Source: Candidatus Vampirococcus lugosii (GTDB lineage Bacteria > Patescibacteriota > Gracilibacteria > Absconditabacterales > Absconditicoccaceae). From it: a stretch of DNA of 19,632 nt. The position numbers and the translations under genes were made by a program. The first letter of the stretch is position 1. Each line of letters starts with the position of its first letter. This document shows, piece by piece, positions 1-19,632 of the stretch. A model generated the notes under the pieces. That model worked only from the letters and a program-made list of their open reading frames with translations. It searched no databases and was not told the origin of the DNA. The stretch covers positions 1 through 19,632 of the forward strand of contig NZ_JAEDAM010000011.1 in the NCBI RefSeq assembly GCF_018420025.1, written 5' to 3'.

Positions 1-253
1 ATAACAAATATATCAAAGCAATAAATGCACATAATCACAAGAAATAATTTAATATTGTTGATATAAACTCAAGTAAATCTCATTGATTATCTCAAGATGC
101 TTGTCATATTCATTCTATATTATCTCATATTCAAGAAACACCTTGTCTTATTGAATCATCATTAGCAGTATTTCATATAATATCTCATTGCTCTCTAGTA
201 TATGTTTTAGATTCTCATCCCCGAGTAGGAAGAGATAGAAATAAATCTAACAT
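1..253 (-). CDS. hypothetical small protein, Gly/Asp-rich first half then a hydrophobic segment; start is inside the window, 3' end runs off the left edge (partial)
   Basis: The minus frame (codon low coordinate = 2 mod 3) has no TAA/TAG from 256 to the edge. ATG at 253..251 directly follows an in-frame stop (257-259). Hand translation: MLDLFLSLPTRGGESKTYTREQGDIIGNTANDDSIRQGVSGIGDNIEGIGQASGDNQGDLLEFISTILNYFLGLCAFIALIYLL... with 10 in-frame TGA. Same orientation as the two upstream genes. No family recognised, and the opposite strand is also open here, so the call is weak. Confidence 0.35.
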
Positions 254-297
254 ATTCTATATTTTAATTATTAATAAATAATTATTAATTTTTTATT

Positions 298-969
298 TTA
301 TTTTTCTTTAAATTTATCCTGACATACTCATTTTAGATTATTATGAATAATATTTTTACAATCTTCAATATTTTTGGCATGCTCAATCCAGTATCTGGAT
401 ATACAAAATTCTGAATTCACTTTATCTTCTATTTCATTACAAATTTCATAATTAGATTCATCGATAGCTTGTGAAGTATACAAATCACTTTCATAAATTC
501 TATTACAATTATTAGCATCATATATATCATCTAATTTAAGATTCTCTCATGCACATCAATTATGCTCTAATGAAATTTTTAAATTTTCATTATCAAAATG
601 CATATAATCATATATTAAAAAGCGAGATAAGTCATCATACATTTCCCAATCTTTACATCTTTTTGTGTCACTAGGTCTATCAAAATTTGAACAATTTTTA
701 TCTAATTTAATATAAGCTCAGCTATAAACTTCATTACATTTAATAACAAATTTTTGTAAACTTTCATAATTCATATCAACATTCTCTATCTTATCATAAC
801 ATCAATTGTCCATCAATTCTTTTTTGATAAAATTTGAATCAATTTTATCTATATCATACTCAAAAGATAATTTTTCTTTTTGCTTCAAAGGAAAAATTAA
901 AAAAGCAAGAATTAGTAATAATAATAATCAAACAGATACAAAAAAATATTTTTTATTATAAATAGACAT
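298..969 (-). CDS. hypothetical secreted or membrane-anchored protein, 223 aa, 10 Cys
   Basis: ATG 969..967, TAA 300..298. Checked triplet by triplet: no TAA/TAG, 6 in-frame TGA. The N-terminus MSIYNKKYFFVSVGLLLLLILAFLIFPLKQ is a basic stretch plus a hydrophobic helix (signal peptide or anchor). The remainder is acidic with 10 spaced Cys. No family recognised. Confidence 0.7.
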
Positions 970-995
970 TTTAAATTCTAACAAATTAAAATAAA

Positions 996-1829
996 CTAAC
1001 AAGATGGATTAGGATTTGGGCTTGCTGCATTAGGAGTAGTAGTTTCCCAACAACCTCCACTAGCATTACATCCTCTATCTATTCTAGTAGTATTAACACA
1101 ATCAGTATCAGAAACAGTCCGATTATTAGTACAAGTATCACATGTTGTTGAACAAGTCTCATTACCATCATCGTCTGTAGAACAAGATTCTGAGCAATTA
1201 CAAGAATAATTACTACTACATGATTTACTACGAGTTTCACATTGATTATTTGTCCGAGATGTAGAAGGTCAACAATATTCTGAATCAAAAACTTCATGAT
1301 TACATGATCAACCTCTACATCTATCTCTCATGTGCTGAAATGTAAGTCAACTACATTGCCGATAGTCAGGCTCATTACAAGCTTCTACTTCAGTAAAGTC
1401 AAAAGATTCACAAGCTCATTCCATACATCTCCATTCTTCCCGTCAAGCATATCAATTCCAAGGTGCTCCAGAAGTTATACTAGCAAAAGTTCAATTTGTA
1501 GAACAAGTTCTATTTTCAAAATCTTCACAAGATTTAAATTCTCAATCTGGTTCTCAATCATCATTTGCTTTCCATTCCCAAAGTAATTTATTATCATTAT
1601 GAGCTCATCTATTATTTACTACATTAGAATCAAAAGACTTTGTAAATATTTTTGCATCTAATCATCTTGTAAAATGAGGTAGATCAGAATTAGTTTCTGA
1701 CATTTTTACTTGTCATCATGGAGATACACATTGATCTTCAAATTCATAAAAAGAACATTCAATAGCATTTGTATACGAATACAATCAATAAAAAGACATT
1801 AATCAAAATAATAATATATATTTTTTCAT
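996..1829 (-). CDS. hypothetical secreted cysteine-rich protein, 277 aa (about 23 Cys)
   Basis: ATG 1829..1827, TAG 998..996, no in-frame TAA/TAG (checked). The N-terminus MKKYILLFGLMSFYGLYSYTNA/IECS looks like a Sec signal peptide. The C-terminal third is a Cys/Ser/Thr-rich tract (..CETRSKSCSSNYSCNCSESCSTDDDGNETCSTTCDTCTNN..GCNASGGCWETTTPNAASPNPNPSC) and is visibly more GC-rich than its surroundings. Track ORFs 1079..1297(-) and 1332..1586(+) are out of frame or antisense. Confidence 0.75.
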
Positions 1830-1998
1830 TTTTATTTTAAATATAATTAAATTAAAACAATCTTAAAACTATAAAATAATAAACAAATTAAATAAAAAGT
1901 CAAATATTTTATATAACTTTATTGTAATTATATTATTAATATTTTTTTTTAATTTGCAATACATTTTTTACTTTTTTTTAAAATAAACTATATATTTT

Positions 1999-2026
1999 TT
2001 GACAAATTATATATTTTATATATACT
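1999..2026 (+). promoter_or_regulatory. candidate sigma70-type promoter for the 2060..4153 gene pair
   Basis: Perfect TTGACA at 1999-2004, a 16-nt spacer, then TATACT at 2021-2026, 33 nt upstream of ATG 2060. TATA-like hexamers are common in such AT-rich DNA, so support rests mainly on the -35 box. Confidence 0.35.
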
Positions 2027-2059
2027 TTCATAATATATAAATATAAATTATAAATTATT

Positions 2060-2341
2060 ATGAAATATAATGATATAAAAAAATGAGTTTTAAACTCAAA
2101 TATAATTCCAGATCCGTTAAAAGATAAAATATTAAAAATTAAAGATTTACCTATACAAATTTGCTCTGTATTGGAAGAAATTTTTGTTTTGGAAGCAAAA
2201 AATAATGAAATTAATAAAGATATTAAATGAAAATCAGTACAAATATTAGTTGAATATATTAAAAGTGTTGAAGAAAAATCAAATGATATTAATGAAGTAG
2301 AAAAAAAACTTGATGATGAATTAGAAAATATATTTGATTAA
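2060..2341 (+). CDS. hypothetical small acidic protein, 93 aa, probably co-transcribed with the downstream transglycosylase
   Basis: ATG 2060, TAA 2339-2341, 2 in-frame TGA, no TAA/TAG. Translation: MKYNDIKKGVLNSNIIPDPLKDKILKIKDLPIQICSVLEEIFVLEAKNNEINKDIKGKSVQILVEYIKSVEEKSNDINEVEKKLDDELENIFD. Lies 39 nt upstream of the next ATG. Shares an in-frame 22-nt identity (KKLDDEL) with the next gene. Confidence 0.6.
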
Positions 2342-2380
2342 ATACAATAAATATTTTATATATTAATTAAAAATAAAAAT

Positions 2381-4153
2381 ATGATCAATAATATAGATAA
2401 TAGAGATATAAATACACAAGAAGATCCAGAAAAAGTTTGACAACCACAATTAGATAATTTTGAAAAAAATCAAGATATTGAAAAAGTAGTTTCTGAATTG
2501 AAAGAAGAATTTAGAAATCTTGCTGAATCTTTGGATACATGAGATGAATGAGAGTCAATAAATTTTTATGTAGATAGAATGAATAGTTATTTGAATGAAA
2601 ATTATAATTGAATAAAAATTGTAATAGATGAAGATTGAAATTTAGAAGTTAAAAATCATGAAGCAGATGAACTTTTAAAAAAACTTGATGATGAATTACA
2701 ATCATTATATTTGGATATAGAAGAATCAATTGATTCTTGAAATGATTTGTTGGATGATCAAGAATTTGCTTGAAAATCTTCATGAGAACTTTTGCAAATG
2801 TCAAATCAAAATAATTCATTATTATATAATAATATAATAAAAGAAAGTGAAGATTGAAGTTTAAATGTTGATTTTAGATGAAATGAGTGAGCAGAAGATA
2901 ATATTTGATTATCAGATATCTTGGCAGAAGATGTTAAATCAGTAAAAATTACTTCTAGTGATTGACAAGTTAGTGAATGAAATAGAGTATGATTAAAATG
3001 ATGATTTTATGATGCTTGATGAAATTATTTAGCTATTTTTAGCTGAGATAAAGTAGAAATCACAGAAAAATATGAAGAACAAGAACTTGAAAAACTAAAA
3101 GAAGCAAATAGTGAAGCTATAAATTCTTTTATGGAAAGGGATGAAATAAAAGAAATGTATACTGAAAATTGAGAAGTTATAGAAGGAAAAAAAGAAGCTA
3201 TATGATTAGCTGTATCAATGGCAGAATCTTATGATCTTGATCCAAATTTATTATTATCAATTTGATTAAATGAATGAATTTTTGAATGAAATATGTGAAT
3301 AATGAATTGAGATTTACAAACTCTTGATTGACAACTTGTTATGCTTTGTAGAAATGTTCAATCAAGTTTTGTCAAATGAACATCTCAATCAAATGAAAAT
3401 TGAGATTGAATAATAAATACAGATGATATTTTGTATTGAATAAATAATGCTTGATTGAGATGATTTTGATGATCTAATTATGATTTTTTATGAAAAATTG
3501 TTGAATCATATTGGACTTTATCTTGAAAAGAATTTACAAATAATGATTTAAAATGAGTGATAGATAAATACAAAAATTCAAATATAAATTTTTCTAGTAT
3601 AAATCCAGAAAATTTAACAATGTGAAATTTAGATATTAATTTACCTAATTTTGAATCATTATTAACTACTCAATGATGAAGAGATTATATGATGTATAAA
3701 GATAGTATAGAACAAATGTGTGATAAACTTAAAATTCCTCCAGAAGTTTTATTGCAATTATTTATAAAAGAATGAAGTCGTTGAAATCCTCATGCATCTC
3801 CTTGAACATCTAGTGCAGTTTGACTTTGACAAATAATAGATTGAACTTGGGAAGGTATTACTAAATCATGATGAACAGCATCAAAATATGGTATTGATTG
3901 AATAAAATTTGATAGATATGATGCAGGACATCAAATAATATGATCGGCAGTTTATCTTAGAGAAATGTATGATAAATTTTGAAGTTGGTGAAAAGCTATG
4001 GTACATTATCATACATGACCTTGACAAATGACAGATTCATATGCACAAAAATGTGCAAAATGGAATCCAGCTATTGAAAGATGAATATCATGACCAATCA
4101 CAGCTCAATCATATTACAATTCTGCAATGAAATATTATACAAATGTTGTTTAA
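2381..4153 (+). CDS. lytic transglycosylase (SLT/GH23 domain) protein, 590 aa, long acidic Gly-rich N-terminal region, no visible signal peptide
   Basis: ATG 2381, TAA 4151-4153. The whole frame was read by hand with no TAA/TAG and dozens of TGA. The C-terminal domain carries the GH23 signature LFIKE(3770-3772)GSRGNPHASPGTSSAVGLGQII...YHTGPG, and the invariant G of A-x-G-L-x-Q is a TGA (3821-3823). The N-terminus MINNIDNRDINTQEDPEKVGQPQ is hydrophilic. Confidence 0.85.
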
Positions 4154-4182
4154 AATTAGCTTTTAAAAACTAATTTTATTTT
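4152..4182 (+). terminator. weak candidate intrinsic terminator after the transglycosylase gene
   Basis: 8-bp all-A/T stem aaaattag (4152-4159) / ctaatttt (4170-4177), followed by T-rich attttct. The stem has low stability and overlaps the stop codon. Confidence 0.3.
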
Positions 4183-4442
4183 CTATTTCTTTTTGATTTC
4201 CTTCAAGATAATCTATTGCTTTATATAAATTATTGTATTAAATTGATTAATAATTTTGAATATTTATAAACTTCAGAATGTTAACTTATTTTAACTAGTT
4301 TTTGATTTGATTAGATATTGCATTGTAATAAAAAAATATAATTTCAAGATAAAACACATCGATCTTCGCTATTACAAAATAATTTATTTTTACAAAATTA
4401 AGATTAAATATTTTATTATTTAGAAATTAATGAGTTAAAAGA

Positions 4443-7400
4443 TTATTATACAAATTTTGTAAATGTATCAGGTTTTTCTGAGTTTTTTTTATTATTTCAA
4501 TAATTATTTTTTAAATAAGATATTTCTAATACTTTTCAAATTTCAAAATCAATCATAGCAATTCATTTATCTCATAAAACTTTTCAAGTATCATCAAAAT
4601 TATTAATTTTTCAAATTTTTAAATCTCATATAGTATATATAACTTCTCAAGTTTTGGAATTAATTTTTGCAATTCAAGTTTCTCATACAATTTTTCAATT
4701 AGAACTAAAATTATTAATATTTCAAATATCTAAATATCAAGTATTATAAATAATTTCTCAAGTTTCAATATCAATTTTGGAAATTCAGTTTTCTCATATA
4801 ATATTTCAATCATAACTAAAATTATTGATTTTTCAGATTCATAAGTTTCAAGTATTATATTTAACTTTTAAAGTTTTTTTATCTATCATACTAATTCAAT
4901 TTTCTCATTTAATTAATCATTTGTCATAGAATTTATTAATTTTTCAAATTCATAAATCTAATGTACTATAAATAATCTCTCAAGTTTCAAAATCAATTTT
5001 TGCAATTCAATTTTCTCATATAACTCATCAATTTGAATAGAATTTATTAATTTTTCAAATTCATAATTCTAAAATACTATAAATAATTTCTCAAGTTTCA
5101 ACATTAATTTTTGCAATTCAAGTTTCTCATATAATTTTTCAATCATTATCAAAATTATTAATATTTCAAATACCTAAATCTCAAGTATTATATTTAATTT
5201 TTAAATTTTTTGTATTAATTTTTGCAATTCAAGTTTCTCATATAACTTTTCAATCATTATCAAAATTATTAATTTTTCAAATTCATAAATCTCAAGTAGT
5301 GTGTTTAACTTTTAAAGTTTTTGTATCAATTATTGTAATTCAAGTTTCTCATATAATATTTCAATTGTTATCAAATTTATTAACTTTTCAAATTTTCAAA
5401 TTTCATGTACTAGACTTAATTTCTCAAGTTTGAATATCAATTATTGTAAATCAAGTTTCTCATACAATTCATCAACTTGAATAGAAACTATTAATTTTTC
5501 AAATTCATAAATTTGGAATAGTATAAATAGTTTCTCAAGTTTTGATATTAATTTTTGCAATTCAAGTTTTTCATATAATTCTTCAATCATTGCTAAAATT
5601 ATCAATTTTTCAAATATCTAAATCTCAAGTATTATAAATAATATCTAATGTTTTGACATTAATTTTTGCAATTCAAGTTTCTCATTTAATTTTTCAATCA
5701 ATATCAAAATTAATAATTTTTCAAATACCTAAATCTCAAGTATTATAAATAATATCTAAAGTTTTTGTATTAATTATAGCAATTCAAGTTTCTCATATAA
5801 CTTTTCAATTAGCATCAAAATCAATAATTTTTCAAATTCATAAATTTGAAGTAGTAGATTCAATTTGTCAAGTTTTAGTATTTATAACTGCAAATCAATT
5901 TTCTCATTCAATTCATCAAGTTCAATAAAATCATTTAATTTTTCAAATACCTAAATCTCATTTATTATAATTAATTTTTCAAGTTTCAATATTAATTTGA
6001 GCAACTCAAGTTTCTCATATTATTTTTCAAGCATTATTAAAATCATTAATTTTTCAAATACCTAAATCTCAAGTAGTATATTTAACTTTTGAAGTTATTA
6101 AATTAAGTAAAGCAACTCATTTTTCTCATATTATTTTTCAATCATTACTGACATTAAGAATTTTTCAAATAACTAAATCTCAAGTATTATATTTAATATC
6201 TAAAGTTTTTGTATCAACTATAGTAAATCAATTTTCTCATATAATTTGTCAATCTGATATAATTTTTCAATCAAAAATAAAATCAATAATTTTTCATATT
6301 CATAAATTTCAAGTATTAGCTATAATTTTTCAAGTTTGAATATTAATTATTGCAATTCAAGTTTCTCATACAATTCATCAATTTCAATAAAAATCATTAA
6401 TTTTTCAAATACCTAAATTTCATTTATTATAAAGAATTTTTCAAGTTCCAACATTAATTTTTGCAATTCAAGTTTCTCATATAATATTTCAATCATAATT
6501 AAAACTAATAATTTTTCATATTTCTAAATCTCATATAGTATAAAAGATTTTTCAAGTTTCAATATTAATTTTTGCAATTCAGTTTTCTCATATAATATTT
6601 CAATCATAATTAAAATTACTAATTTTTCAAACACCTAAATCTCAGGTAGTATAAATAACTTTTCAGTTTTTGACATTAATTTTTGCAATTCAATTTTCTC
6701 ATATAATTTTTCATTTATTATTAAAATTAATAATTTTTCAAATACCTAAATCTCAAGTATTAGATTTAATTTTTCAAGTTTTGACATCAATTATTGCAAT
6801 TCAATTTTTTCATACAATTCATCAAGTTCAATAAAAAGATTCAATATTTCAAATACCTAAATCTCAAATATTATATTTAATTTCTCAAGTTTTGACATTA
6901 ATTTTTGCAACTCAATTTTCTCATTTAATTAATCAATCATTATCAAAATTACTAATATTTCAAATACCTAAATCTCAAGTATTATATTTAATTTCTAAAT
7001 TTTTAACATTAATTTTTGCAAGTCAATTTTCTCATTTAATTAATCAAGTATCATCAAAATTAATAATATTTCAAATACCTAAATTTCAAGTATTATATTT
7101 AATTTTTCAAGTTTGAATATCAATTATTGCAAGTCAATTTTTTCATAAAATTCATCAACTTGAATAAAATCATTTAATATTTCAAATACCTAAATCTCAA
7201 ATATTATATTTAATTTCTCAAGTTTTAAAATTAATTTTTGCAACTCAATTTTTTCATATAATTTTTCAATCATCATCAAAATTAATAATATTTCAAATAT
7301 CTAAATTTCAAATACTATAATCAACTTCTCAAGTCTCAAAATTAATTTTTGCAATTCAATTTTCTCATATAATTTTTCAATTTTTATCAAAATCAATAAT

Positions 7401-8573
7401 ATTTCAAATATCTAAATTTCAAATACTATAATCAACTTCTCAAGTTTCAAAATCAATTTTGGCAATTCAAGATTCTCATAAGATATTTCAATTTTTATCA
7501 AAATCAATAATATTTCAAATATCTAAATCCGAAGTAGTATAATCAACTTCTCAAGTTTCAAAATCAATTTTGGCAATTCAAGATTCTCATAAAATATTTC
7601 AATCATTATCAAGATTAATTATTTTTCAAATATCTAAATCTCAAGTAGTATAATCAACTTCTCAAGTTTCAAAATCAATTTTGGCAATTCAAAATTTTCA
7701 TAAAATATTTCAGTCAGATTCAAGATTAATTATTTTTCAAATATCTAAATTTCAAGTGGTATAAATAATATCTCAAGTTTCAATATTAATTTTGGCAATT
7801 CAAGATTCTCATAAAATATTTCAATCAGATTCAAAATTAATTATTTTTCAAATATCTAAATTTCAAGTAGTATAAATAATATCTCAAGTTTCAATATTAA
7901 TTTTGGCAACTCAAGATTCTCATAAAATATTTCAACCAGATTCAAATCTATCAACTTTTCAAATATCTAAATTTCAAGTACTATAATTAACTTTTCAAGT
8001 TTCAATATTAATTTTTATAATTCAATTTTCTCATATAATTTTTCAATTAGTTTCAAATTTATTAACTTTTCAAATACTTAAATTTTGAATTATATTTATA
8101 GTTCATTTCAATTTATTAACATATATTATATGTCCAGATTCAGATTCCCATAAATTTTCACAAATTTTATTTAATTTTCAATATTTTTTTTGTAGTTCTA
8201 TATTGGATATTTCATTGTTTGGATCTAACTTTAAAACTCCCAAAATTTTATTAGTGATACTATTATATCAAATATCGCTTAAAAGTTTTTTTAAGAAATT
8301 AGAACTATTTTTATCAACTTTTTTTCTTAATTTTCTCAAAAATGTTTTTGCTTTAGCTTGAAACAGAGGTAAACTAAATAAATCTTTTAATTTTTTTTTT
8401 CATTTATCATCTATATTTGAACTCATTTGAAATAATGAAATAATATTTTCAATTTCTTTATCATCTTTTCATATATCTTTCAATACAATTCATAATCATG
8501 TCGCAAAATCATCACTTACAAAAACTTCATCTAAATCAGAACAATCTTGACTAATTTCATAGTTATCTATCAT
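4443..8573 (-). CDS. giant tandem-repeat protein, 1376 aa: unique N-terminal region of about 160 aa, then 32 x 37-aa glycine-periodic repeats, then a short tail; possible beta-solenoid; unknown function
   Basis: ATG 8573..8571 is preceded by an in-frame stop at 8577-8579; TAA at 4445..4443. All triplets with low coordinate = 0 mod 3 across 4.1 kb were checked and contain no TAA/TAG. By hand count there are about 205 in-frame TGA. N-terminus: MIDNYEISQDCSDLDEVFVSDDFATGLGIVLKDIGKDDKEIENIISLFQ... (no signal peptide or TM helix). Repeat consensus: G-K-I-I-N-F-(D/E)-x-(D/N)-G-(N/K)-I-(L/I)-G-E-x-G-I-A-K-I-(N/D)-(F/I)-E-T-G-(E/D)-(V/I)-x-Y-x-x-G-x-L-x-I. C-terminus: ...IAMIDFEIGKVLEISYLKNNYGNNKKNSEKPDTFTKFV. 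Confidence 0.85.
4520..8100. repeat. 32-copy tandem array, unit 111 bp (one unit is 129 bp), lying entirely inside the 4443..8573 CDS
   Basis: The (c/t)tcat landmark occurs at 4571, 4682, 4793 ... 7919, 8030. That gives 30 intervals of exactly 111 bp and one of 129 bp (6236 to 6365). Every interval is a multiple of 3. Units are diverged at scattered positions, except for a nearly uniform block at about 7364-8030. Confidence 0.95.
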
Positions 8574-8618
8574 TATTTAAATATTTTGATTAAAAAATTA
8601 AATTAAATTTAACATTAT

Positions 8619-8648
8619 GTTATATATATAAAAATATATATTTGTCAA
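8619..8648 (-). promoter_or_regulatory. candidate promoter for the giant repeat gene
   Basis: Minus-strand TTGACA at 8648..8643. TATATA/TATAAC-like -10 candidates lie 16-18 nt downstream (about 8626..8619), roughly 45 nt before ATG 8573. The -10 is not distinctive in this A/T background. Confidence 0.3.
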
Positions 8649-8934
8649 TAAAAAAAAACTTTTTTTTATCTCATACTTGTATGACTAAAATTTGTAAACA
8701 AAATTATAAACTGAAAAACATAATGTATGCCTGGTTAGAAGTAGTTGAATATATATTACTTAATTAAAAATTTTCCGAAATAGTATATTTATACTTAAAA
8801 AACAAAAAATTTCATTATAATAAAAAAATTATATTAATAATTCTATTTTTACTTTTTTACTGATATTTTAAATTTACCAGCATAAAAAATAAAAATATAC
8901 TTGAAATTTATTATAATTTTTTTATACTTCTTTA

Positions 8935-8965
8935 TATAGCACTAATATTATTTATGTGCTATAAT
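8935..8965 (+). promoter_or_regulatory. CIRCE-like inverted repeat (candidate HrcA operator) overlapping an extended -10 upstream of clpB
   Basis: Perfect 8-bp arms tatagcac (8935-8942) and gtgctata (8956-8963) with a 13-nt spacer. This gives TAGCAC-N13-GTGCTA, the same core and spacing as CIRCE (TTAGCACTC-N9-GAGTGCTAA). The right arm runs into TGcTATAAT (8957-8965), 33 nt before ATG 8998. No good -35 box was seen. Confidence 0.5.
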
Positions 8966-8997
8966 ATGAAAATTTTAAATTTTAAAATAAATAAAAT

Positions 8998-11604
8998 ATG
9001 AATTTTGAAAAATATACGATAAAAGCTAGTGAAGCAGTTAATCAAGCACAAAGTAATGCAATAGAAAATAATAATAATGTAATAGATGTTTTGCATATTT
9101 TAAATTCTATGTTTGAACAAGAAGATTGATATATACCTGCTATACTTAAAAAATGAAATTTTGAAATACAAAAAATACATAATGAAATAAAACAATGAAT
9201 AAATAGTTTACCAAAAATTGAATGATGAAAATATCAAATTCAAGTTTCTTATGATTTAAATCAAGCATTTATAAATGCCGAAAAACAAGCAAATAGTTTA
9301 AATGATGAATATATTACTACTTATCATATATTTTTGGCCATATTGAAATGAAACTCAAAAGCAAATAAGGAAATATTACAAAAAGAATGAATAAATTATA
9401 AAAATATTTTGGAAATAATAAACGAAATTAAAAAATGAGATTCAGTTCAAAGTGTAGATCCAGAAACTACTATGGATTCTTTAAATAAATTTGGTAGAAA
9501 TATTACTGAACTTGCAAAAAATTGAGATTTGGATCCAGTAATTGGTAGAGAAGACGAAATAGCTAGAACTATACAAATTCTTTCTAGGAGAACAAAAAAT
9601 AATCCAGTACTTACTGGTGATCCTTGAGTTGGTAAAACTGCTATTATTGAATGAATTGCACAATTAATAATTAAATCTGAAGTTCCTGATATTTTAAAAA
9701 ATAAAACAATAATAGAACTTGATATGTCAGCTTTGATGGCATGAACTAAATATAGATGAGAATTTGAAGAAAGATTGAAAGCTATATTAAAAGAATTAAA
9801 TAAATCTAAATGACAAATAATTTTATTTATAGATGAAATACATAATATAGTATGAGCTGGTAAAACTGAATGATCTATGGATATGTGAAATATGATAAAA
9901 CCTGAACTTGCTAGAGGTAAAATTAGAGTAATATGAGCAACTACTATTAATGAATATAGAAAATATGTAGAAAAAGACCCAGCTTTGGAAAGAAGATTTC
10001 AACAAGTTCATATTGATCAACCTAGTAAAGAAGATGCATTAGCTATTCTTAGATGAATAAAAGAAAGATATGAAGCTCATCATTGAGTAAAAATTACTGA
10101 TTCTTCACTTATTTCTGCTGTTGATTTATCTGAGAAATATATTACTGATAGATTTTTGCCTGATAAAGCTATAGATTTGATAGATGAAGCTTCTGCTAGT
10201 GTAAAAATGGCTCTTACTAGTATGCCTACAGAAATTATTAAATTAAAAAAACAAATTACTCAATTAGAAATTGAAAAACAAGCAATAATAAGAGATCAAT
10301 GAAATACTAGTATAGATAATAATAGAATGCAAAAACTTGAAAAAGAATTAGCTAGTGCAAAAGAAAATTATGAAAAATTAAAAATTAATTGGGAAACAGA
10401 AAGAGAATATGTAGTTAAAGTAAAACAATTAAAAGAAGAATTACAAAAATTAGAACATCAAGCACAAATAGCAGAAAAAGAAACAAATTACAATAAAGTA
10501 GCTGAAATTAGATATTGACAAATTCCAAAATTACAAAATGAATTATCAGAAATAGAAAAAAAAGTAGAAAATTCAAAAAAAGATTCTAGTATTAAAATTA
10601 AAGATATTGTAGAACCTGAAGATCTTGCACTAATTATAAGTAAATGGACACAAATTCCTGTTTCAAAACTTGTTGAAAGTGAAAAAGAAAAATTAGCAAA
10701 TATTGAAAAAAATATATCAACAAAAGTTGTTTGACAAGATTTTGCTATATCAGCAGTTGCAAATGCTATTAGAAGATCAAGAGCTTGATTGAAAGATCCA
10801 AATAAACCAGTTTGATCATTTCTTTTTTTATGACCAACTTGAGTTGGTAAAACACAACTTGCAAAATCATTAGCTGAATTTCTTTTCAATAATGAAAAAT
10901 CTATAATAAGATTAGATATGTCAGAATATATGGAAAAACATTCTGTAAGTAAACTTATTTGATCTCCTCCAGGATATGTTGGTTATGATGAAGCTTGACA
11001 ACTTACGGAAGCGGTAAGAAGAAAACCTTATTCTATAATACTTTTTGATGAAATAGAAAAAGCTCATCCAGATGTATTTAATGTATTATTGCAATTATTG
11101 GATGATTGAATACTTACAGATAACAAATGAAAAACTGTTAATTTTAAAAATACTATAATAATTCTTACTTCAAATATAGGTTCAGATATGATAATGGAAA
11201 AACTTAGTAATTCACAAGATATACAAACAAGAAAAGAAGTTGAAAATTGAATAATGAAACAACTAACTAATTATTTTCGTCCAGAATTTATAAATAGAAT
11301 AGATGACTTAATTATTTTCAATCCTATAAATGAAGAAATGTTGAAAAATATTGTTTCTATAAATTTACAAAAAATTAATGATATGCTTTATTATGATAGA
11401 TGATTAAATCTTGATTTTGATGATGAAGTTTTAAAATATTTGGCAAAAGCTTGATGGGATCCTGCATTTGGTGCTAGACCTTTGGATAGAGCTATACAAA
11501 AAGAATTATTAAATCCATTAGCAATGTCTATTATGCAATGAAATATTAAAAATAATTCTAAAATAAAAATAAATATACAAGATTGAAAAATAAGTATAAA
11601 TTAA
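8998..11604 (+). CDS. clpB: ATP-dependent chaperone/disaggregase ClpB, 868 aa
   Basis: ATG 8998, TAA 11602-11604. The full hand translation shows Walker A1 GDPGVGKTA (9616-), Walker [14 protein letters not shown], a long coiled-coil middle domain, Walker A2 GPTGVGKT (10831-), [24 protein letters not shown] and GARPL. Track ORF 10327..10518(+) is an in-frame fragment between two TGA codons. Confidence 0.97.
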
Positions 11605-11632
11605 AATTAAATTTTATATTATTAAAAAAAAA

Positions 11633-11669
11633 AGATAAAAGTACAGTAAAATTACTTTATCTCTTTTTT
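11633..11669. terminator. bidirectional intrinsic terminator between convergent clpB and the PBP gene
   Basis: Stem agataaaagta (11633-11643) / tactttatct (11653-11662): 10 bp with one bulged A and a 9-nt loop. It is followed by cTTTTTT (11663-11669) and preceded by an A-run (about 11624-11632) that supplies the U-tract for minus-strand transcripts. Confidence 0.55.
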
Positions 11670-11725
11670 ATATTACATATTTTAAGTAAAATACTTAAAA
11701 ATAAATAACTAATTAAAAAAAGATA

Positions 11726-13411
11726 TTATAAATTATTAACAACTAAATTCCAAAGATATCAAGCAGTATTTACTCAACTATCCATCATAGCAGTTCAATT
11801 ATAATTTCAAGCCCACACACATACTATCAATCATTTTTGTTTATTTGCACCACAAGTCCATCAATCAACAAATCTTCTTGAAGTTCATGTTTTTACAGCC
11901 CATCAAGGTACAGACATAAAACTATCTATCCCAAAAGATAAATTTCTATAAGAATTTTTTGTCAAAATATCATAAACTTCTTTTATTTGTACTTCATAAG
12001 AATCTAGAAAATCATATTCATTTATATCAAAAAATATTTTCCAAAGTTTTGCAAAATTTAATGGACTCATTTCATAAGTTCATAAACCAGCAGATAATCA
12101 TAAATTTCTTTCATTAAAAAATTCATGATTTTTTTCTAATTTATCTTTATTTTCTTTTCATACATTAATTCTTAATTTTTCAATAAAATTTATATAATTT
12201 CATACTCATACATCATTTAATAATTTTACAGTAGGAACATTTAGACTACTTCATAAAGCTTGTGCAAGTTTCACATCTCAAGCATAAGTTTGAGAAAAAT
12301 TTTTGGGTGCATAAATATTTTCTCATTCCAAAATATATTCTATAGGTTTATCTTCCAATATAGATTCTGAATTTAAATTTAATTCTTTCATAGCATACAA
12401 ATATAAAAAAGGTTTGGCAACTGATCAAGTTTGTCTCCTAGAAGTACAAGCATTTACCTGTCATGCAAATAAATCTTCATAAGATCTACAAATATTCATA
12501 GTCAAAACTTCTCAAGTATTATCCAAAACTAATATACAACAATCATTCATTCATTGCATATTTCTATATTCAAAAGTATTTTTTATGATATTATTTATCA
12601 TATTATGTAAATCTAGATCAAAGTTTTTAGAATTATTATTTTTTGAAGATTGAATATAATCTACATAATGATTTGCCAAATTATCAAAATTATGATAAAT
12701 ATCATTTGAAGACAATGGTGGCAAATTATATATATTTTTACAAATATTATCACTTACAAAATCAAGATTTGATATTTGATTACAAAGTAATTTAGATCTT
12801 TTTTTTAATTGATCAAAATTATTATTATTTAAAGGATTTGTACCAGTTTGATATATTGAAACCAAAAACAATAATTCAGACAAAAATAAATTTTCACAAT
12901 TATTATCAAAATAAACTAAACAAGCACTATTTAATCATCTTACTTGATTTGGAAATTCCAAATTATTTATATAATACAAAAATATATCTTCTTTTGAATT
13001 ATGTGTATTTAAATTTATAGCAATAAAATTTTCTTTAATTTTCTGCAAAATACTTCTATCAAAAAAAGCAGATTGCGATAATTTTATTGATTGCTGATCT
13101 ATAGTACTTGCTCATTGTCTATTTCCCAAAAATATATTTGAATGAATAGCTCTTGATATTGCTTTTATATCAATTCAAAAATGTGAATAAAATCTTTTGT
13201 CTTCTATTTCTTTTATTATTTGATTAATATTATTTGGTATACTATTATAATTTTCATAAGAAATATTTTTAATTCATTTTAATATATTTCATTTTGAATC
13301 ATATATTAAATTTTCTGTATTATCTTGCAATTCATATTCATACAAAAAATTAAATAAGAATAAAAATATAAAAAACAATACAAAAATTATAAAAGTCAAT
13401 TTTTTTTTCAT
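11726..13411 (-). CDS. pbpC: bifunctional class A penicillin-binding protein (GT51 glycosyltransferase + transpeptidase), 561 aa; PbpC-like by synteny with the upstream alpha-2-macroglobulin
   Basis: ATG 13411..13409, TAA 11728..11726, no in-frame TAA/TAG (checked). N-terminal TM anchor MKKKLTFIIFVLFFIFLFLF. GT51 motifs EDKRFYSHFGID (about 13171-13205) and RQGASTIDQQ (about 13091-13120). Transpeptidase motifs S-V-A-K (RQTGSVAKPF, about 12407-12440), S-L-N (ALGSSLNVP, about 12228-12260) and KTGT (about 11883-11899). Shorter than E. coli PbpC, with no extra C-terminal domain, so the symbol is tentative. Track ORF 12551..12883(-) is an in-frame fragment. Confidence 0.9.
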
Positions 13412-13450
13412 AAAATTAGAGATTATAAAAATAAATTCAATATTTGATCT

Positions 13451-16400
13451 CTAATTATTCAAAACTTTTCTTCAATGAACTTGAGTATCATACATTTCAA
13501 AAAATCTAGTAGGCATTATATTAAAATTACCATTAAATGAGTTTATTCATTCAAAAATTATTTCACATTCTGTTCAAGATTTTATACTATCATAATACAA
13601 GAAAAGTCTATCAAATCTTGATTCATAATGCGACGGCGAACATCTTCTTCATCATTTTATTTGAAAAGGTTCTGAATCATCAAATTTTGAAATATTTCAA
13701 AGTAATTTAATATTTGCTGGAATAAAGAATTCTACTGCAACTTGTGATGCATCTTTAGTTGTTGCAAAAGATCCTGTCAAAATTGTTCTATCACCTACAG
13801 AAGTATCTTTTTCTATTTCAAGATTTAATTCTGATAATCATTCAAGATAACTTTCCAATTCACCAAAATCATTTGGTAAATATGAAGTTTTCATATCTAT
13901 AAATAAGTTTTCATTACAATTCCATGAAGTTTCCAAATCTCATTTGGATTTATCAGATAAATCAATTTCTTGTGATATATTTTTAATTTCATCGGATAAA
14001 GTATGTTTATGAACTTCTCAATCAACTGTAATATCACAAGATATATCATCACTAGACTTAATTTTTAATATATATTTTGACAATGATGATATTATTTGCA
14101 TATTTTTTTGAGTTGACCATCACCAAATTCATTTATTAGTTCTATTTTCCAAAAAATCAGTCACTAATCATATTATTTCTTGATTATAATTTTCAAAATC
14201 ATATTCAATTAAACTTGAAAGGTATATTGATTGTAATATATCTTTTCAAATATATTTACTATATGATCTTGAATATTTTATTTTATCTAAATCTATTTGT
14301 TCAAGATATTTAACTGCTTGTTCTGAATCATTAATATTTGCAAATATTGCAAAAGCTAAGATTGCTAATCTAGGTTCATCATCAATATTGTCATCAATTA
14401 TTTGTTTAATAAGTTCAATATTAATATCTTTATTAACTAAAGTTCTATTATAAATATAATATGCATAAGCAAGTATATTATTTGATCATATTTTATCTAG
14501 AAAAGATTCTAAACTTGACATAAAACTTTTATCTACTTGATATCATAGACTTTCCAAATGAGAAAATACCGAATAAACATAACTACTTAAATATATAGTA
14601 GAACTTTCTCATGCTCTACTCCGATATCACATTCATCAATCAGATTTTTGATTTTGATATATTTTATCAGCTGTTTCCAAAAACATTTCATTGAAATCAA
14701 CAAATCATCTAGTTCATCAAACATTAACAGAATTTCATCTTACTATATTTTCTGAAATCAATCATTCTTGTCAAAGTTCCCATGCAAGCAATGAAGGATA
14801 AAGTCAACTCAACATTTGTTCTGTACATCCATAAGGATATCTTACCAAATAATCCAAAGCTTCTTCAAAAGCATTTATAGGCATATTAGACAAAGATAAA
14901 TCCATAGATAAATATTCATATTCACTTGGCATCTTGAAAATATGTTTTCATTCTTTATTTGAAGTAAAGAAAAAATCATTAATTTCAAATCATGAGGCTC
15001 TAATAGGTATTTTCCATTCTACTATATCTTTAAATTGATCATCACTAGCAGTGATAATAAACTTTACCCAATCATCTTGATATATATTATTTGGTATATA
15101 AACATCAAAATTTGTATTTATTTCAGAATCAGAATTTAATTTATTTGTTCATAAATCTACTTGTGTTCAATCTTCAAATTCCAAAAATCAAGAAACTTCA
15201 ATTTCATCAGATACATCAAAATCAGAATCTAAAACTACATTTACAGGTAATTTAATACTATCTCATAAAGTAAGAAATAAAGGCCAATTTGGATTTAACA
15301 TTATAGCTTGTTTTGTTTGAAAATATTCTCTATTTGTTCATATTTTTTGATTTTTATCATATCAAATAACATCAATCATCCAAGTTGTTAAATTATCTGG
15401 CAAATCAAAATCTAAATTTGCTTTACCATCTACAACATCTAAAGATCAAGTCCAATAAGCAGTATCTTTAAATTCTGTTCTCAAAGAAAGTATTCTAGAA
15501 ATTCAACCTCATCATCATTTTCTACCTCAAGTTGTATAAACTTTTAAACTATCAAAAAGCATTTTCATATTTGAAAAATTGGAAATGAAACTACCAACTT
15601 TATTATAAAAATATGGAATTGGTTCTTTAATAATATCATATAAATCTATCAAAGCTTTATCTACTACTGCCAAAGATACTTTTGCATTAACAGGATTTCA
15701 ATAATTATCATTAACAAAAACATCTAAAGACACATTTTCTCCAGGAGTATATAAATCTTTATTAGCTTCTACATCAATATTTAATTTAACAGCTGATTCA
15801 TCAATATTAGCTTGTGCATATCAAATCATAAATCTAGGTTCTTTTCTTTTATTTTCTCAATCTACATTATCCAAAACAACCGTTTCAGGTACAAGTTTTG
15901 ATACAGAAACATTTACATAAGGAATATATTCTTCTTTTGTAGGAATAGTTATTTTGTTTCAATCAAGAGTTTTTTCATATGTATCAAGAATTTCATTTCA
16001 TTTTTCTACTGTAATAATTACTTTTGCATCATTAATATATGGATTTACATTTATTTCTATTTCTTCATCTAGATCAAAACTTTTCCTAGGTATATTTACA
16101 TCCAAAACAATATTATTATCAATATCTCACCAATATCAATAATATGAATATCATCTATATGAATGTATTCTTTTTTGTGTTTCTCAATTTATATTTCAAT
16201 CCTCTCAATAAGAAATTGTTCTTAAAAAATATTGTCAAGAATCCGATAAATCCAAATTTATACTAAAATTTCAATCTTGATGAGATATTTCTTTTTTTTC
16301 AATTTCTTCAAATTCATATCAAGCTATATAATAATAACTTCAATCTACTCATTTTTCTTGTTTATGTCAATAATCTCTTTTGTACAAAATATATTCAAGA

Positions 16401-19138
16401 GATTCGGATTTATTATTTTTATCAATAATTTCACCTCTAACTAAATATTCATCTTCACTATAATTGTAATCTACAGATTGTCAATCTAGCCCAATTTTTA
16501 TTTCTGCTGGAATTTTTTCATAAAATGTAAGCAATCTAGATTCATCAGAGTTATTATCTGTAATATATAAATCAAATTTAATATCAAAATCATATCATCT
16601 ATTTTGTATTTCACTAAGATCCATAATTTCCAATGAAAAAGTTTCTTTATCAAGATTTTCATATGAAAAATTTCATCCATCAGTATGAATATTACCAAAA
16701 ATATGATTATAAGTATATTCTTTATCAGACCACCAATAACACCGCCAACATTTATCTTCACTAACTATTGAATAATCAAGTTCTATATCATAATTAGATA
16801 AATTTTCTCAAAAATAATATTTAGGATCAATTTGTAAATAATATTTATCAGCTTTTGAATACATATTTGTATCTACAAAATAAGTTGGTTTTTGATATTC
16901 TTGTATCTTTATATTATGAGAATAAGAAATATCATCTGTAAAAATATATTTAATAGTATAATCTCAAAGTTTAGCAGATTTAGGAATTTGAAAACTTCAA
17001 TCAAATCATCAAAATTCATCAAGACTTAAATTTTCTACTCTCTGTATTTCATTACTAGAATGTGATAAAATAGCATTAATATTTCATTCACTAACTGCTC
17101 AAGAATAAATATCGCTCACAAATCAAGCAAAATAAATTTCATCTCAAGGTTTATAAATAGCTCTATCCGTATATCAATAAGTTCTAATAATATCCATATT
17201 ACCTTTTTCTTTATCCATTCATATATCACTACTATCTACAAAAGATGTAATTCTTAAATTTTTGTACAAATCGTTTTCTCTATGATAATACCATAATCAT
17301 CAAGATTTTCTCAAAACAATAAAATTTTGATCATTTCATTTTGAAACTTTTATAAGCAAAACATCGGAATCTATTTCTGATAAATCTAATTTATATAAAG
17401 AATCTATTCATATTTCATATTTAATATTTTCAAATTTATCATCATAAACTTGTATATGTAATTCTTCCAAACTTTTTCCTGTATACATATCATAACTAAA
17501 AAGATACATCATATCTCCTGCTAATTTTACAAAATTTCAAATATCTGATCTAGTAAAATATCTACTTGATCTAAAATCTTCAAAAAATGAAATTCTATAA
17601 TGATTTAAATCACTTACTTGTGGAATAGAAACATGTTCATCATAGACTTTCCAGTATTCAAAATCATCTTTTATATATTCTACTTTTTGTATTTCAGCAT
17701 TACAATCAAGAAAATATTCTTCTATTCATGAAGATCATTTTTTTGTAAAATCAGCTTCTCATAATTCACATCATTGAATATATAAATCTAGTTTATCGTA
17801 ATTTTGAAATCACAATCTAATTTTATCTCACCAATATCAAGTTCTAGAAACTAAATTATATCTTTCTGTATACAAAGATCAAAATTTAAATCAATCAGGA
17901 ATTTCTTCTATATTAAAATCAAATTTATGAGTTGATTCATGTCAATAAATTGATTTTAATAAAATTTCTCATTTGTAATCTTGTCATGGAATTGGACGAT
18001 AATTTATAGAAATACTATTTTCTTTTACATTATAATCATAATATCAACTACCAAAAAAACTTTCTAAAGTTTGATCAAGTCAATGTCAAGTCAAATTAAA
18101 ATTTGATGAAATTTCAAATTTTAAATTTGATTCATTATTTGTAAATTCTGTTTCAAAATCTGCAACTTCAAAAGACATACTATAAGAGAAACCACTATCA
18201 TCAACCATTAATAATAAATAATCACCTGCATCATCTGTTTCAAAATCAAAACTTACATTTCAAGTTCAATATTTAAAATTAGATAACTCGTATTTTTTAA
18301 ATAATTTATTATCAATATCTTTAATATTATAAAAATCTGCCAAATCTTCTATATTATTTACTTCATCATTTCACATATAAAATCATAATTCATGAAAATT
18401 TAAATAATTTTCCAAATCAATATCTTTTTCTTCAATAACTCAAAATTGTTCCATATCTAAATCAATTTCTTCTGGTTTATCTATATATTTTACTAAATAT
18501 GCATTTTTCAAAAACTCATCTTTTTTATTAATTTTGAAAGAATCTAATTCTATATCCACCCAAAAACTTTCTCATACAGGCAAATCACTATTTATAATTT
18601 TTGTATTACTTGATAAATTCCTAGAAAAAGTTCAAAGAGATTCCGATCAATATTTCAATCAAATTTTTTCAAAATCTTTTCGCAATCAATAAAAATCTAA
18701 TTCTGATACAGTATCTATCATTTTACCACTTTGAAAAACATAATTTTTATCTTTTGCATATCAATTTCTTCACACTTCAAAAGTGTGTGGATCAGCATAT
18801 CTAAGTCAATATCATTCTTGAAAAGTTGATTCATTATCTTTAACATCATCAATTTCAATTTTCTTTCAATTGTAATATACATATATATTATCTTTTGAAT
18901 ATCTTTGTCAGAGATTTTCTTTCTCTCAATAATTAAGTTCATCTTCTGATGATAAAAGATCTTCTACTTCATCTAAATTTTTTTCCTTTTCTTCTTTATC
19001 AAGATTACTAGTATGTTTATTAATTTCATACAAATTAAATCATAAAATAACCAAACAAAAAAATCAAAATATTCATATACTTATAAATTTTATGTTTTTA
19101 ACAACATATTCTTTTATTCTATCAAAATTAAAATTCAT
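13451..19138 (-). CDS. bacterial alpha-2-macroglobulin family protein (thioester-containing protease trap), 1895 aa, N-terminal membrane anchor
   Basis: ATG 19138..19136 with an upstream in-frame stop at 19145-19147; TAG 13453..13451. All 95 sequence lines were checked in frame (low coordinate = 2 mod 3) with no TAA/TAG. Family motifs: YKPGDEIYFAGFV (about 17131-17160), LAVVDKALIDL, GGRKGGGGG..EFKDTAYW, LPDNLTTWMIDVIGY (15361-15406) and thioester PYGCTEQM. The N-terminus MNFNFDRIKEYVVKNIKFISIGIFGFFCLVILGF is a single TM helix with no canonical lipobox. Confidence 0.92.
14816..14827 (-). other. thioester motif Cys-Thr-Glu-Gln (CxEQ) of the alpha-2-macroglobulin
   Basis: Plus strand ttg ttc tgt aca reads on the minus strand as tgt aca gaa caa = C-T-E-Q, within PYGCTEQM. 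It is intact and in frame. Confidence 0.85.
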
Positions 19139-19225
19139 TATTAATTAATAATATTAAAATGTAAATTGATTATTAATATAAATAAATAACAAAAAAATGC
19201 AAATATAAAGATATATTTTTATTAA

Positions 19226-19243
19226 TTCCCGCCCGGGCGAGAA
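19226..19243. promoter_or_regulatory. GC-rich 18-bp near-palindrome TTCcCGCCCGGGCGaGAA (candidate operator) in the divergent intergenic region
   Basis: 8 of 9 dyad pairs match. The perfect 10-bp core cgcccgggcg is at 19230-19239, and 19228-19239 is a 12-nt all-G/C run in otherwise almost pure A/T intergenic DNA. Lies 88 nt upstream of the A2M ATG and 73 nt upstream of the + strand ATG. Confidence 0.35.
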
Positions 19244-19249
19244 GTAAAT

Positions 19250-19315
19250 TTGAAAAAATTAGAAAAATCATTATAAAGTTAGTATTTTTTTATTTTATAT
19301 ACTAACTTTTTTTAT
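19250..19315 (+). promoter_or_regulatory. candidate promoter plus an 11-bp inverted repeat immediately upstream of the 19316 start codon
   Basis: TTGAAA at 19250-19255, a 16-nt spacer, then TATAAA at 19272-19277. Perfect inverted repeat aaagttagtat (19275-19285) / atactaacttt (19299-19309) with a 13-nt T-rich loop, followed by tttttata and ATG 19316. The left arm overlaps the putative -10. Confidence 0.3.
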
Positions 19316-19632
19316 ATGCAAGAACAAAATCATCTACAAAACATACTTTACAATCTTTGATATGAGATAAATAAAGATTGAAATATAGAAAATAAACTAA
19401 ATTTTTCTTGATACAAGATAAATAATTATTTTACTTCACAAATTAAAGATTGGAAACAACAAGTAGAAAATAAAGAAGATATCTTAAAAGAAATAGATAA
19501 TTTTTTATCATTTTATTTTGATGGATGAGATTTTGGATATTTTAAAAATAAGTATGATAATTATTCTTATAGACTTGAATATTCTTGAGAAGATACAAGT
19601 TTTATATGGTCAAGTAAAGACAGTTTCTATAT
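19316..19632 (+). CDS. hypothetical protein, N-terminal 105 codons only (runs off the right edge)
   Basis: ATG 19316, open to the window end with 6 in-frame TGA and no TAA/TAG. Translation: MQEQNHLQNILYNLGYEINKDGNIENKLNFSGYKINNYFTSQIKDWKQQVENKEDILKEIDNFLSFYFDGGDFGYFKNKYDNYSYRLEYSGEDTSFIWSSKDSFY.. No family recognised. Confidence 0.5.

Follow-up and report, generated by a model that had tools for sequence, protein, structure and literature searches.

Translation table 4, in which UGA is read as tryptophan, is used by the Mycoplasmatales, the Entomoplasmatales and insect endosymbionts. Candidatus Vampirococcus lugosii, to which we assign the DNA analyzed here, preys on Halochromatium as an epibiont and is one of the Absconditabacteria (SR1) within the candidate phyla radiation (CPR); NCBI taxonomy lists it under Candidatus Absconditibacteriota. 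A different meaning of the same codon defines table 25, described in the AT-rich Absconditabacteria (Rinke et al, 2013; Hanke et al, 2014): UGA serves as an extra codon for glycine, UAA and UAG are stops, and UGG encodes tryptophan. A further change in the Absconditabacteria, of CGA and CGG (CGR) from arginine to tryptophan, was predicted by Shulgina and Eddy using Codetta (2021; eLife 10:e71402, PMC8629427). We analyzed a stretch of 19,632 bp (contig NZ_JAEDAM010000011.1, positions 1 to 19,632; hereafter the window) and found that TGA encodes glycine in its genes, that UAA and UAG still terminate translation, and that CGG probably encodes tryptophan.

The reading of UGA as glycine is already known, for SR1/Absconditabacteria since 2013 and for the V. 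lugosii genome since 2021. Moreira et al (2021; Nat Commun 12:2454, PMC8080830) report UGA as glycine and the use of Prodigal with table 25 for this genome; the article also describes Vamp_19_245 (1895 aa) as an alpha-2-macroglobulin-domain membrane protein and counts 38 tRNA genes, and its searched text gives neither anticodons nor release factors. With TGA read as glycine, the translation of the alpha-2-macroglobulin (A2M) gene of the window is 100% identical over 1895 residues to MBS8121711.1/WP_213348506.1 of Candidatus Vampirococcus lugosii, and that of a cysteine-rich secreted protein is 100% identical over its full length to MBS8121713.1 of the same organism. A preliminary description, made from the letters of the window, had placed the contig in a CPR lineage that uses table 25, and these identities bear that placement out. 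We consider it practically certain that UGA is glycine here and that the contig comes from V. lugosii.

The window resembles table 25 in reading UGA as glycine, UGG as tryptophan and UAA and UAG as stops, in being AT-rich, and in coming from the Absconditabacteria. It differs from table 25 in two respects: CGG, and perhaps CGA, appears not to encode arginine, and UGA is the dominant glycine codon (88% of glycine codons) and not merely an additional one. With the Absconditabacterales code of Shulgina and Eddy it shares rare CGR codons, arginine encoded through AGA, CGR codons at tryptophan or other aromatic columns, and exchange of CGR with TGG between relatives. It differs from those genomes in GC content (0.29-0.38 in 8 of the 10 genomes listed, 0.22 in the window) and in the order of the two codons: CGA outnumbers CGG in 8 of the 10 listed genomes, whereas CGG outnumbers CGA in the window, which holds only 5,789 codons. 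In this respect the window looks closer to the low-GC BD1-5 genomes of the same study, for which only CGG is tryptophan. As in table 4, a stop codon, UGA, was captured in a reduced genome rich in AT, and release factor 2 (RF2) was presumably lost, but in table 4 the codon became tryptophan. The closest precise description is table 25 with the Shulgina-Eddy change of CGR to tryptophan.

TGA as a glycine codon

The ClpB disaggregase gene of the window contains 36 in-frame TGA codons. We aligned its product with MAFFT to homologues drawn from standard-code phyla, 80 in number and none above 54% identity. The homologue loci were confirmed by tblastn under the standard code, in which recoded relatives break at TGA, so the set carries no lineage information but provides an unbiased reference for the columns. 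The preliminary description had cited three TGA codons at invariant glycines of the ClpB Walker A loops and a fourth (3821-3823) in a GH23 motif; all four are TGA in the frames and contexts that it gave. The ClpB positions are as follows:

9625..9627, plus strand: Walker A glycine of the first nucleotide-binding domain (NBD1), G-D-P-[TGA]-V-G-K-T; all 80 standard-code homologues have Gly in this column
10831..10833 and 10840..10842, plus strand: Walker A loop of the second domain (NBD2), [TGA]-P-T-[TGA]-V-G-K-T; all 80 homologues have Gly at both sites

All three columns are also glycine in the structures of Thermus thermophilus and Escherichia coli ClpB. Across the whole gene, 27 of the 36 TGA columns have a glycine majority among the 80 homologues (25 with at least 80% Gly, two with 50-80%), and 13 are glycine in every homologue. 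The other nine comprise one aspartate column and eight variable ones; none of the 36 is a tryptophan column. Read in the other direction, the 34 columns with at least 90% Gly hold TGA 20 times, GGT nine times and GGA once in the window, and both columns with at least 90% Trp hold TGG. Every other codon sampled in this table of conserved columns has its standard meaning.

We masked TGA as X in alignments to Protein Data Bank (PDB) sequences, so that the meaning of the codon was not presupposed. ClpB (Pfam AAA_2, AAA_lid_9, ClpB_D2-small and Clp_N) found T. thermophilus ClpB (1qvr) as its best match (E=5.5e-249), with X facing glycine in both Walker A loops and elsewhere. The class-A penicillin-binding protein (PBP; Pfam Transgly and Transpeptidase), masked in the same way and compared with Staphylococcus aureus PBP2 (2olu), has TGA opposite glycine in the H-G-x-D, G-A-S-T, V-x-G and T-G-S-x-x-K-P motifs. 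In A2M, 25 TGA columns have at least 40% Gly, compared with a background of 7%.

As a second measure, hidden Markov model (HMM) profiles were built from the homologues alone (52 distant homologues for A2M), and each window protein was scored with all its TGA codons read as each of the 20 residues in turn. Glycine scored best for both proteins. ClpB reached 1247.1 bits as Gly, 1169.8 as the next-best residue, Ser, and 1143.8 as Trp; for A2M the corresponding scores were 455.8, 363.4 (again Ser) and 288.2. Glycine thus leads the next-best residue by 77 bits in ClpB and by 92 bits in A2M. The homologue comparison proposed in the preliminary description has accordingly returned glycine, with no tryptophan column in ClpB. 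That description was also right that TGG remains at tryptophan positions: besides the two ClpB columns, the W of the A2M motif LTTW is TGG (15380-15382). UGG keeps tryptophan and is distinct from UGA.

The reading frames of the window give the same picture. At 21.8% GC, TAA and TAG together are expected to make up about 7-8% of random codons. With these two as the only stops, a frame stays open for as many as 1897 codons, and seven complete genes encoding proteins of up to 1895 aa fill 88.6% of the window; with one small ORF and a partial ORF at each end the total is ten, in agreement with the earlier figure of ten ORFs over about 90% of the window. The ten, all called with TAA and TAG as the only stops, are:

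298..969, minus strand: hypothetical membrane-anchored protein (g1), 223 aa; stop TAA; 6 TGA, 0 GGN
996..1829, minus strand: Cys-rich secreted protein (g2), 277 aa; stop TAG; 15 TGA, 6 GGN, 4 CGG; identical to MBS8121713.1
2381..4153, plus strand: protein with a C-terminal SLT/GH23 lytic transglycosylase domain (g3), 590 aa; stop TAA; 58 TGA, 4 GGN
4446..8573, minus strand: repeat protein (g4), 1375 aa; stop TAA; 205 TGA, 15 GGN
8998..11604, plus strand: ClpB disaggregase (g5), 868 aa; stop TAA; 36 TGA, 11 GGN
11726..13411, minus strand: class-A PBP with transglycosylase and transpeptidase domains (g6), 561 aa; stop TAA; 25 TGA, 5 GGN
13451..19138, minus strand: bacterial A2M (g7), 1895 aa; stop TAG; 111 TGA, 21 GGN, 2 CGG, 1 CGA; Vamp_19_245 / MBS8121711.1
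1..253, minus strand: partial ORF, holding the N-terminal portion of a gene that continues past the left end; 10 in-frame TGA
19316..19632, plus strand: partial ORF, holding the N-terminal portion of a gene that continues past the right end; 5 in-frame TGA
2060..2341, plus strand: small ORF (about 93 aa) situated upstream of g3, a putative gene call; 2 TGA; ends with TAA or TAG

A frame of 1895 codons free of TAA and TAG, with 111 TGA in frame, cannot be random. The seven complete genes contain 456 in-frame TGA and, by construction, no in-frame TAA or TAG, while their other frames contain 598 TAA and 305 TAG. Five of the genes end in TAA and two in TAG, and the TAG that ends the A2M gene lies where its homologues have their C-termini. 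Standard-code gene calling fails here, as had been claimed: table 11 gives no ORF longer than 133 aa and just two of 100 aa or more. It yields 16 ORFs of 55 aa or longer, of which three are in-frame fragments of real genes and 13 are out of frame or antisense, a result much like the 2 of 14 in-frame fragments counted earlier from a different ORF track.

Once TGA is a sense codon, stop-free stretches of 164-323 codons also appear antisense inside real genes, at 9396-10367 and 10488-10982 on the minus strand opposite ClpB and at 990-1586 and 7987-8562 on the plus strand. These stretches are likely spurious, and gene callers set to table 25 could pick them up.

Glycine codon usage and exchange with relatives

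The genes for A2M and PBP have orthologues on two related contigs, L081 and L082, which allowed a comparison codon against codon that is independent of any translation. Opposite the TGA codons of the window stand GGN 84 times, TGA 47 times and TGG once, and no TGG of the window stands opposite TGA or GGN. Over the seven complete genes, 456 of the glycine codons are TGA and 62 are GGN, with GGC absent and GGG used twice; TGA makes up 88% of glycine codons (84% without the repeat protein) and 7.9% of all 5,789 codons. UGA is the main glycine codon here, and the GGN box is nearly displaced. In the A2M and PBP genes of L081 (27.5% GC) and L082 (36% GC), TGA accounts for 35-47% of glycine codons. 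The share of TGA is higher at lower GC, which fits AT mutation pressure converting GGN to UGA. A secondary statement in the literature notes a "high usage" of TGA in code-25 bacteria, and the 88% share is extreme in degree but not new in kind.

The A2M gene is followed by the class-A PBP gene in the window (11726-19138, minus strand) and likewise in L081 (321-8707) and L082 (268-9260). This pairing matches yfhM-pbpC of E. coli, and the gene pair is conserved even in a reduced CPR genome.

Two other meanings of TGA must be weighed against glycine. Tryptophan, as in the table 4 of Mycoplasmatales and several insect endosymbionts, would suit a genome this AT-rich, and it is the reading applied in the public protein predictions for L081 and L082 (P0002 and P0003), where TGA is given as W at 51 of 51 and 50 of 50 codons. 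Relative to Gly, the W reading scores 103 bits lower in ClpB and 168 bits lower in A2M, would raise tryptophan to about 8.5% of residues, and conflicts with the ClpB columns (no TGA at a Trp-conserved column, both conserved Trp columns TGG) and with a single TGA-TGG pair against 84 TGA-GGN pairs. The ClpB columns, the orthologous codon pairs and the profile scores refute table 4, to which we assign a negligible probability; the table-4 calls on L081 and L082 mean that the database sequences carry dozens of false tryptophans each. Equally negligible is the view that TGA is a true stop or is recoded only occasionally, by selenocysteine (Sec) or programmed read-through, in a window that is non-coding, pseudogenised or misassembled. 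Such a view would account for there being nearly nothing coding under table 11, but it has to place 456 TGA codons in frames of up to 1895 codons free of TAA and TAG, frames that encode full-length ClpB, a PBP and an A2M, with TGA at invariant glycines of catalytic loops. The codon is also far more frequent than any use of Sec, and never stands opposite Cys or Sec. Stop, selenocysteine, read-through and pseudogene readings are excluded by the ClpB match, the codon share and the glycine columns. Against glycine, one conserved ClpB column (Asp in 76 of 80 homologues) holds TGA, and the eight variable ClpB columns, like many in A2M, are what a diverged protein is expected to have and give no positive evidence.

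UGA acts as a glycine sense codon in the window, and UAA and UAG alone end translation. Earlier studies of the clade, cited in PMC8629427 to Campbell (2013) and Rinke (2013), report a tRNA-Gly with anticodon UCA that reads UGA and the absence of RF2. By extension from this work, such a tRNA would read UGA in V. lugosii, and release factor 1 (RF1) alone would terminate translation in the absence of RF2. AT mutation pressure may have turned GGN into UGA and made it the main glycine codon. In the window itself, a Pfam scan of the proteins found no release-factor gene and an Rfam scan at gathering thresholds found no family.

CGG as a probable tryptophan codon

The preliminary description named table 25 as the code of the window. 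Its reading of UGA stands, but table 25 is probably not the whole code, since CGG (six codons) behaves as tryptophan and not as arginine. The arginine box of the 5,789 codons consists of AGA 117, AGG 5, CGT 4, CGC 1, CGA 1 and CGG 6, which amounts to 10 CGG and 1.7 CGA per 10,000 codons. Their positions are:

14621..14623, minus strand: CGG at A2M residue 1506, the aromatic position of the D-G-G-x-x-x-W motif in the thioester domain; probably Trp, judged from the homologue column
1440..1442, minus strand: CGG at residue 130 of the Cys-rich protein; probably Trp, aligned with W in the paralogue WP_213349847.1
16742..16744, minus strand: CGG at A2M residue 799, within an insert rich in Trp, C-W-[CGG]-C-Y-W-W; opposite CGG in L081 (D-W-[CGG]-D-W-W-[CGG])
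1359-1361, 1254-1256 and 1119-1121, minus strand: three further CGG codons of the Cys-rich protein, outside the alignment evidence for Trp or Arg and uninformative
18680-18682, minus strand: the single CGA, in A2M, uninformative

At A2M residue 1506, the 52 distant homologues have W 33 times, F 13 times and R never, and the orthologous codons are TGG in L081 and CGA in L082. Only seven of the 1895 A2M columns have at least 50% Trp, so a CGG codon would meet a tryptophan column by chance in about 0.4% of cases. Scoring the two A2M CGG codons as W raised the HMM score from 455.8 bits (both as R) to 467.9. In the Cys-rich protein, the segment G-Y-A-G-[CGG]-E-E-W-R-C-M-E-G-A-C-E aligns with S-Y-K-V-W-E-E-W-Q-C-M-E-G-A-C-E of WP_213349847.1, a protein in which W makes up 3.3% of residues. 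The insert around A2M residue 799 is absent from the distant homologues, and its codon is uninformative alone. In total, two of the six CGG codons, and both of the informative ones, align with tryptophan, and none aligns with arginine.

The exchange of codons with relatives points the same way. In the A2M and PBP orthologues, CGR codons of the relatives stand opposite TGG of the window nine times, opposite Tyr or Phe codons nine times and opposite AGR or CGY arginine codons never, while AGR and CGY codons stand opposite each other 43 times. Conserved arginine columns of ClpB and A2M hold AGA, AGG or CGT, never CGG or CGA. From these comparisons of sequence, we judge that CGG in this window probably encodes tryptophan and not arginine, and that CGA possibly does so as well.

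The alternative is plain table 25, in which UGA is glycine, CGG and CGA are still arginine, and the two CGG-tryptophan alignments are ordinary substitutions. We regard this as unlikely, though much less so than the rival meanings of TGA. Several observations speak for it and against reassignment: the case for tryptophan consists of two informative codons out of six together with exchange at the level of the lineage, and the single CGA is uninformative; the V. lugosii proteins deposited at NCBI have Arg at CGG and CGA sites; CGA is inferred to have stayed arginine in some Gracilibacteria of low GC; and the order of CGG and CGA is the reverse of that in most Absconditabacterales genomes listed by Shulgina and Eddy. 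Nor do tRNA genes attest the reassignment: scans detected no such gene in the window or on L081, and the one on L082 is tRNA-Thr(CGU). Arginine is hard to reconcile with an A2M column that lacks R in all 52 homologues and has TGG and CGA in its orthologues, with the low chance of such a match, with a second CGG that faces W in a paralogue containing little of it, with nine TGG and no arginine codons opposite the CGR codons of relatives, and with a change from CGA and CGG to tryptophan that was already predicted across the clade. The supplementary files of PMC8629427 that were searched do not name V. lugosii, and none of the papers searched links Vampirococcus, CGG and tryptophan.

Under reassignment, CGG would have changed from arginine to tryptophan, possibly along with the single CGA, giving table 25 plus CGR as tryptophan, and the deposited proteins would carry wrong arginines at these sites. 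CGG is likely tryptophan, and plain table 25 probably mistranslates it. We lean, with slightly less assurance than for CGG itself, to a fuller statement: the true code is table 25 plus CGG as tryptophan, the public proteome has systematic Arg-for-Trp errors, and V. lugosii represents the most AT-rich and most advanced recoding of its clade, with GGN nearly displaced and CGG a commoner new tryptophan codon than CGA. The explanation as a whole, a V. lugosii contig with UGA as glycine, UAA and UAG as the only stops and CGG most likely as tryptophan, we hold to be very highly probable.

Proteins of the window and the meaning of the code

The A2M protein carries the Pfam domains MG2, A2M_BRD, A2M and bMG10. 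The Cys-rich protein has a single relative in an exhaustive search, the V. lugosii paralogue WP_213349847.1, which covers its residues 1-148; a word-index search found only the protein itself. A contig of 3,032 bp encodes this paralogue of 540 aa, whose annotation is thrombospondin type-1 domain protein. The first 60 residues of the Cys-rich protein match it at 100% identity and the two diverge thereafter, a pattern that could reflect a recent duplication or recombination, or an assembly or strain variant. GC content in the window also peaks in the region of the Cys-rich gene (31% at 1201-1800).

For the hypothetical membrane-anchored protein, Pfam gave no match. The lytic transglycosylase domain of the 590-aa protein went undetected in a Pfam scan of the full length and was found when the C-terminal 175 aa were scanned alone (PF01464 SLT, E=3.5e-10, 39.9 bits); a search of this domain against PDB sequences, with TGA as X or as G, returned no useful match (with X, one at chance level, E=0.5). 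Codon 3821-3823 (plus strand) lies here in A-V-[TGA]-L-[TGA]-Q. The earlier claim for this site holds as regards the codon and the domain; its assignment as the invariant glycine of the GH23 G-L-x-Q motif comes from reading the motif, not from a computed alignment, and is best taken as putative.

In the 1375-aa protein, a unit of exactly 37 aa recurs 31 times (array at 4587-8045), interrupted at one junction between units by 6 inserted residues. The period of 37 has 63% self-identity, and the consensus is GKIIGENGIAKINIKTGEIIYNTGDLGIGKIINFDND, with six glycines per repeat, nearly all TGA. In four columns of the repeat all 31 copies have TGA, and another column mixes 7 TGA with 11 GGN, an exchange of TGA with GGN between repeats. 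Among the repeats, codon position 3 varies least (0.19, compared with 0.27 and 0.22 for the other two); nearly all third positions are A or T, which makes this measure uninformative on frame. No Pfam family matched the protein, and its G-x-x-x-G...T-G spacing suggests beta-propeller-like blades.

Any translation of the window has to treat TGA as a sense codon; calling genes under the standard code yields nearly only spurious fragments. For the biology of UGA as glycine, this establishes nothing new: it is a published property of a published genome. The 88% share of UGA adds a data point on how a captured stop codon takes over a codon family under AT pressure, and the CGG evidence extends the published clade-wide prediction of CGA and CGG as tryptophan, at the level of codons, to V. 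lugosii. If CGG is indeed tryptophan, the public V. lugosii proteome has systematic Arg-for-Trp errors. Several large surface proteins of this predator, among them A2M and the 31-repeat protein, are affected; they are relevant to the interface between predator and prey, and their sequences depend wholly on the right code.

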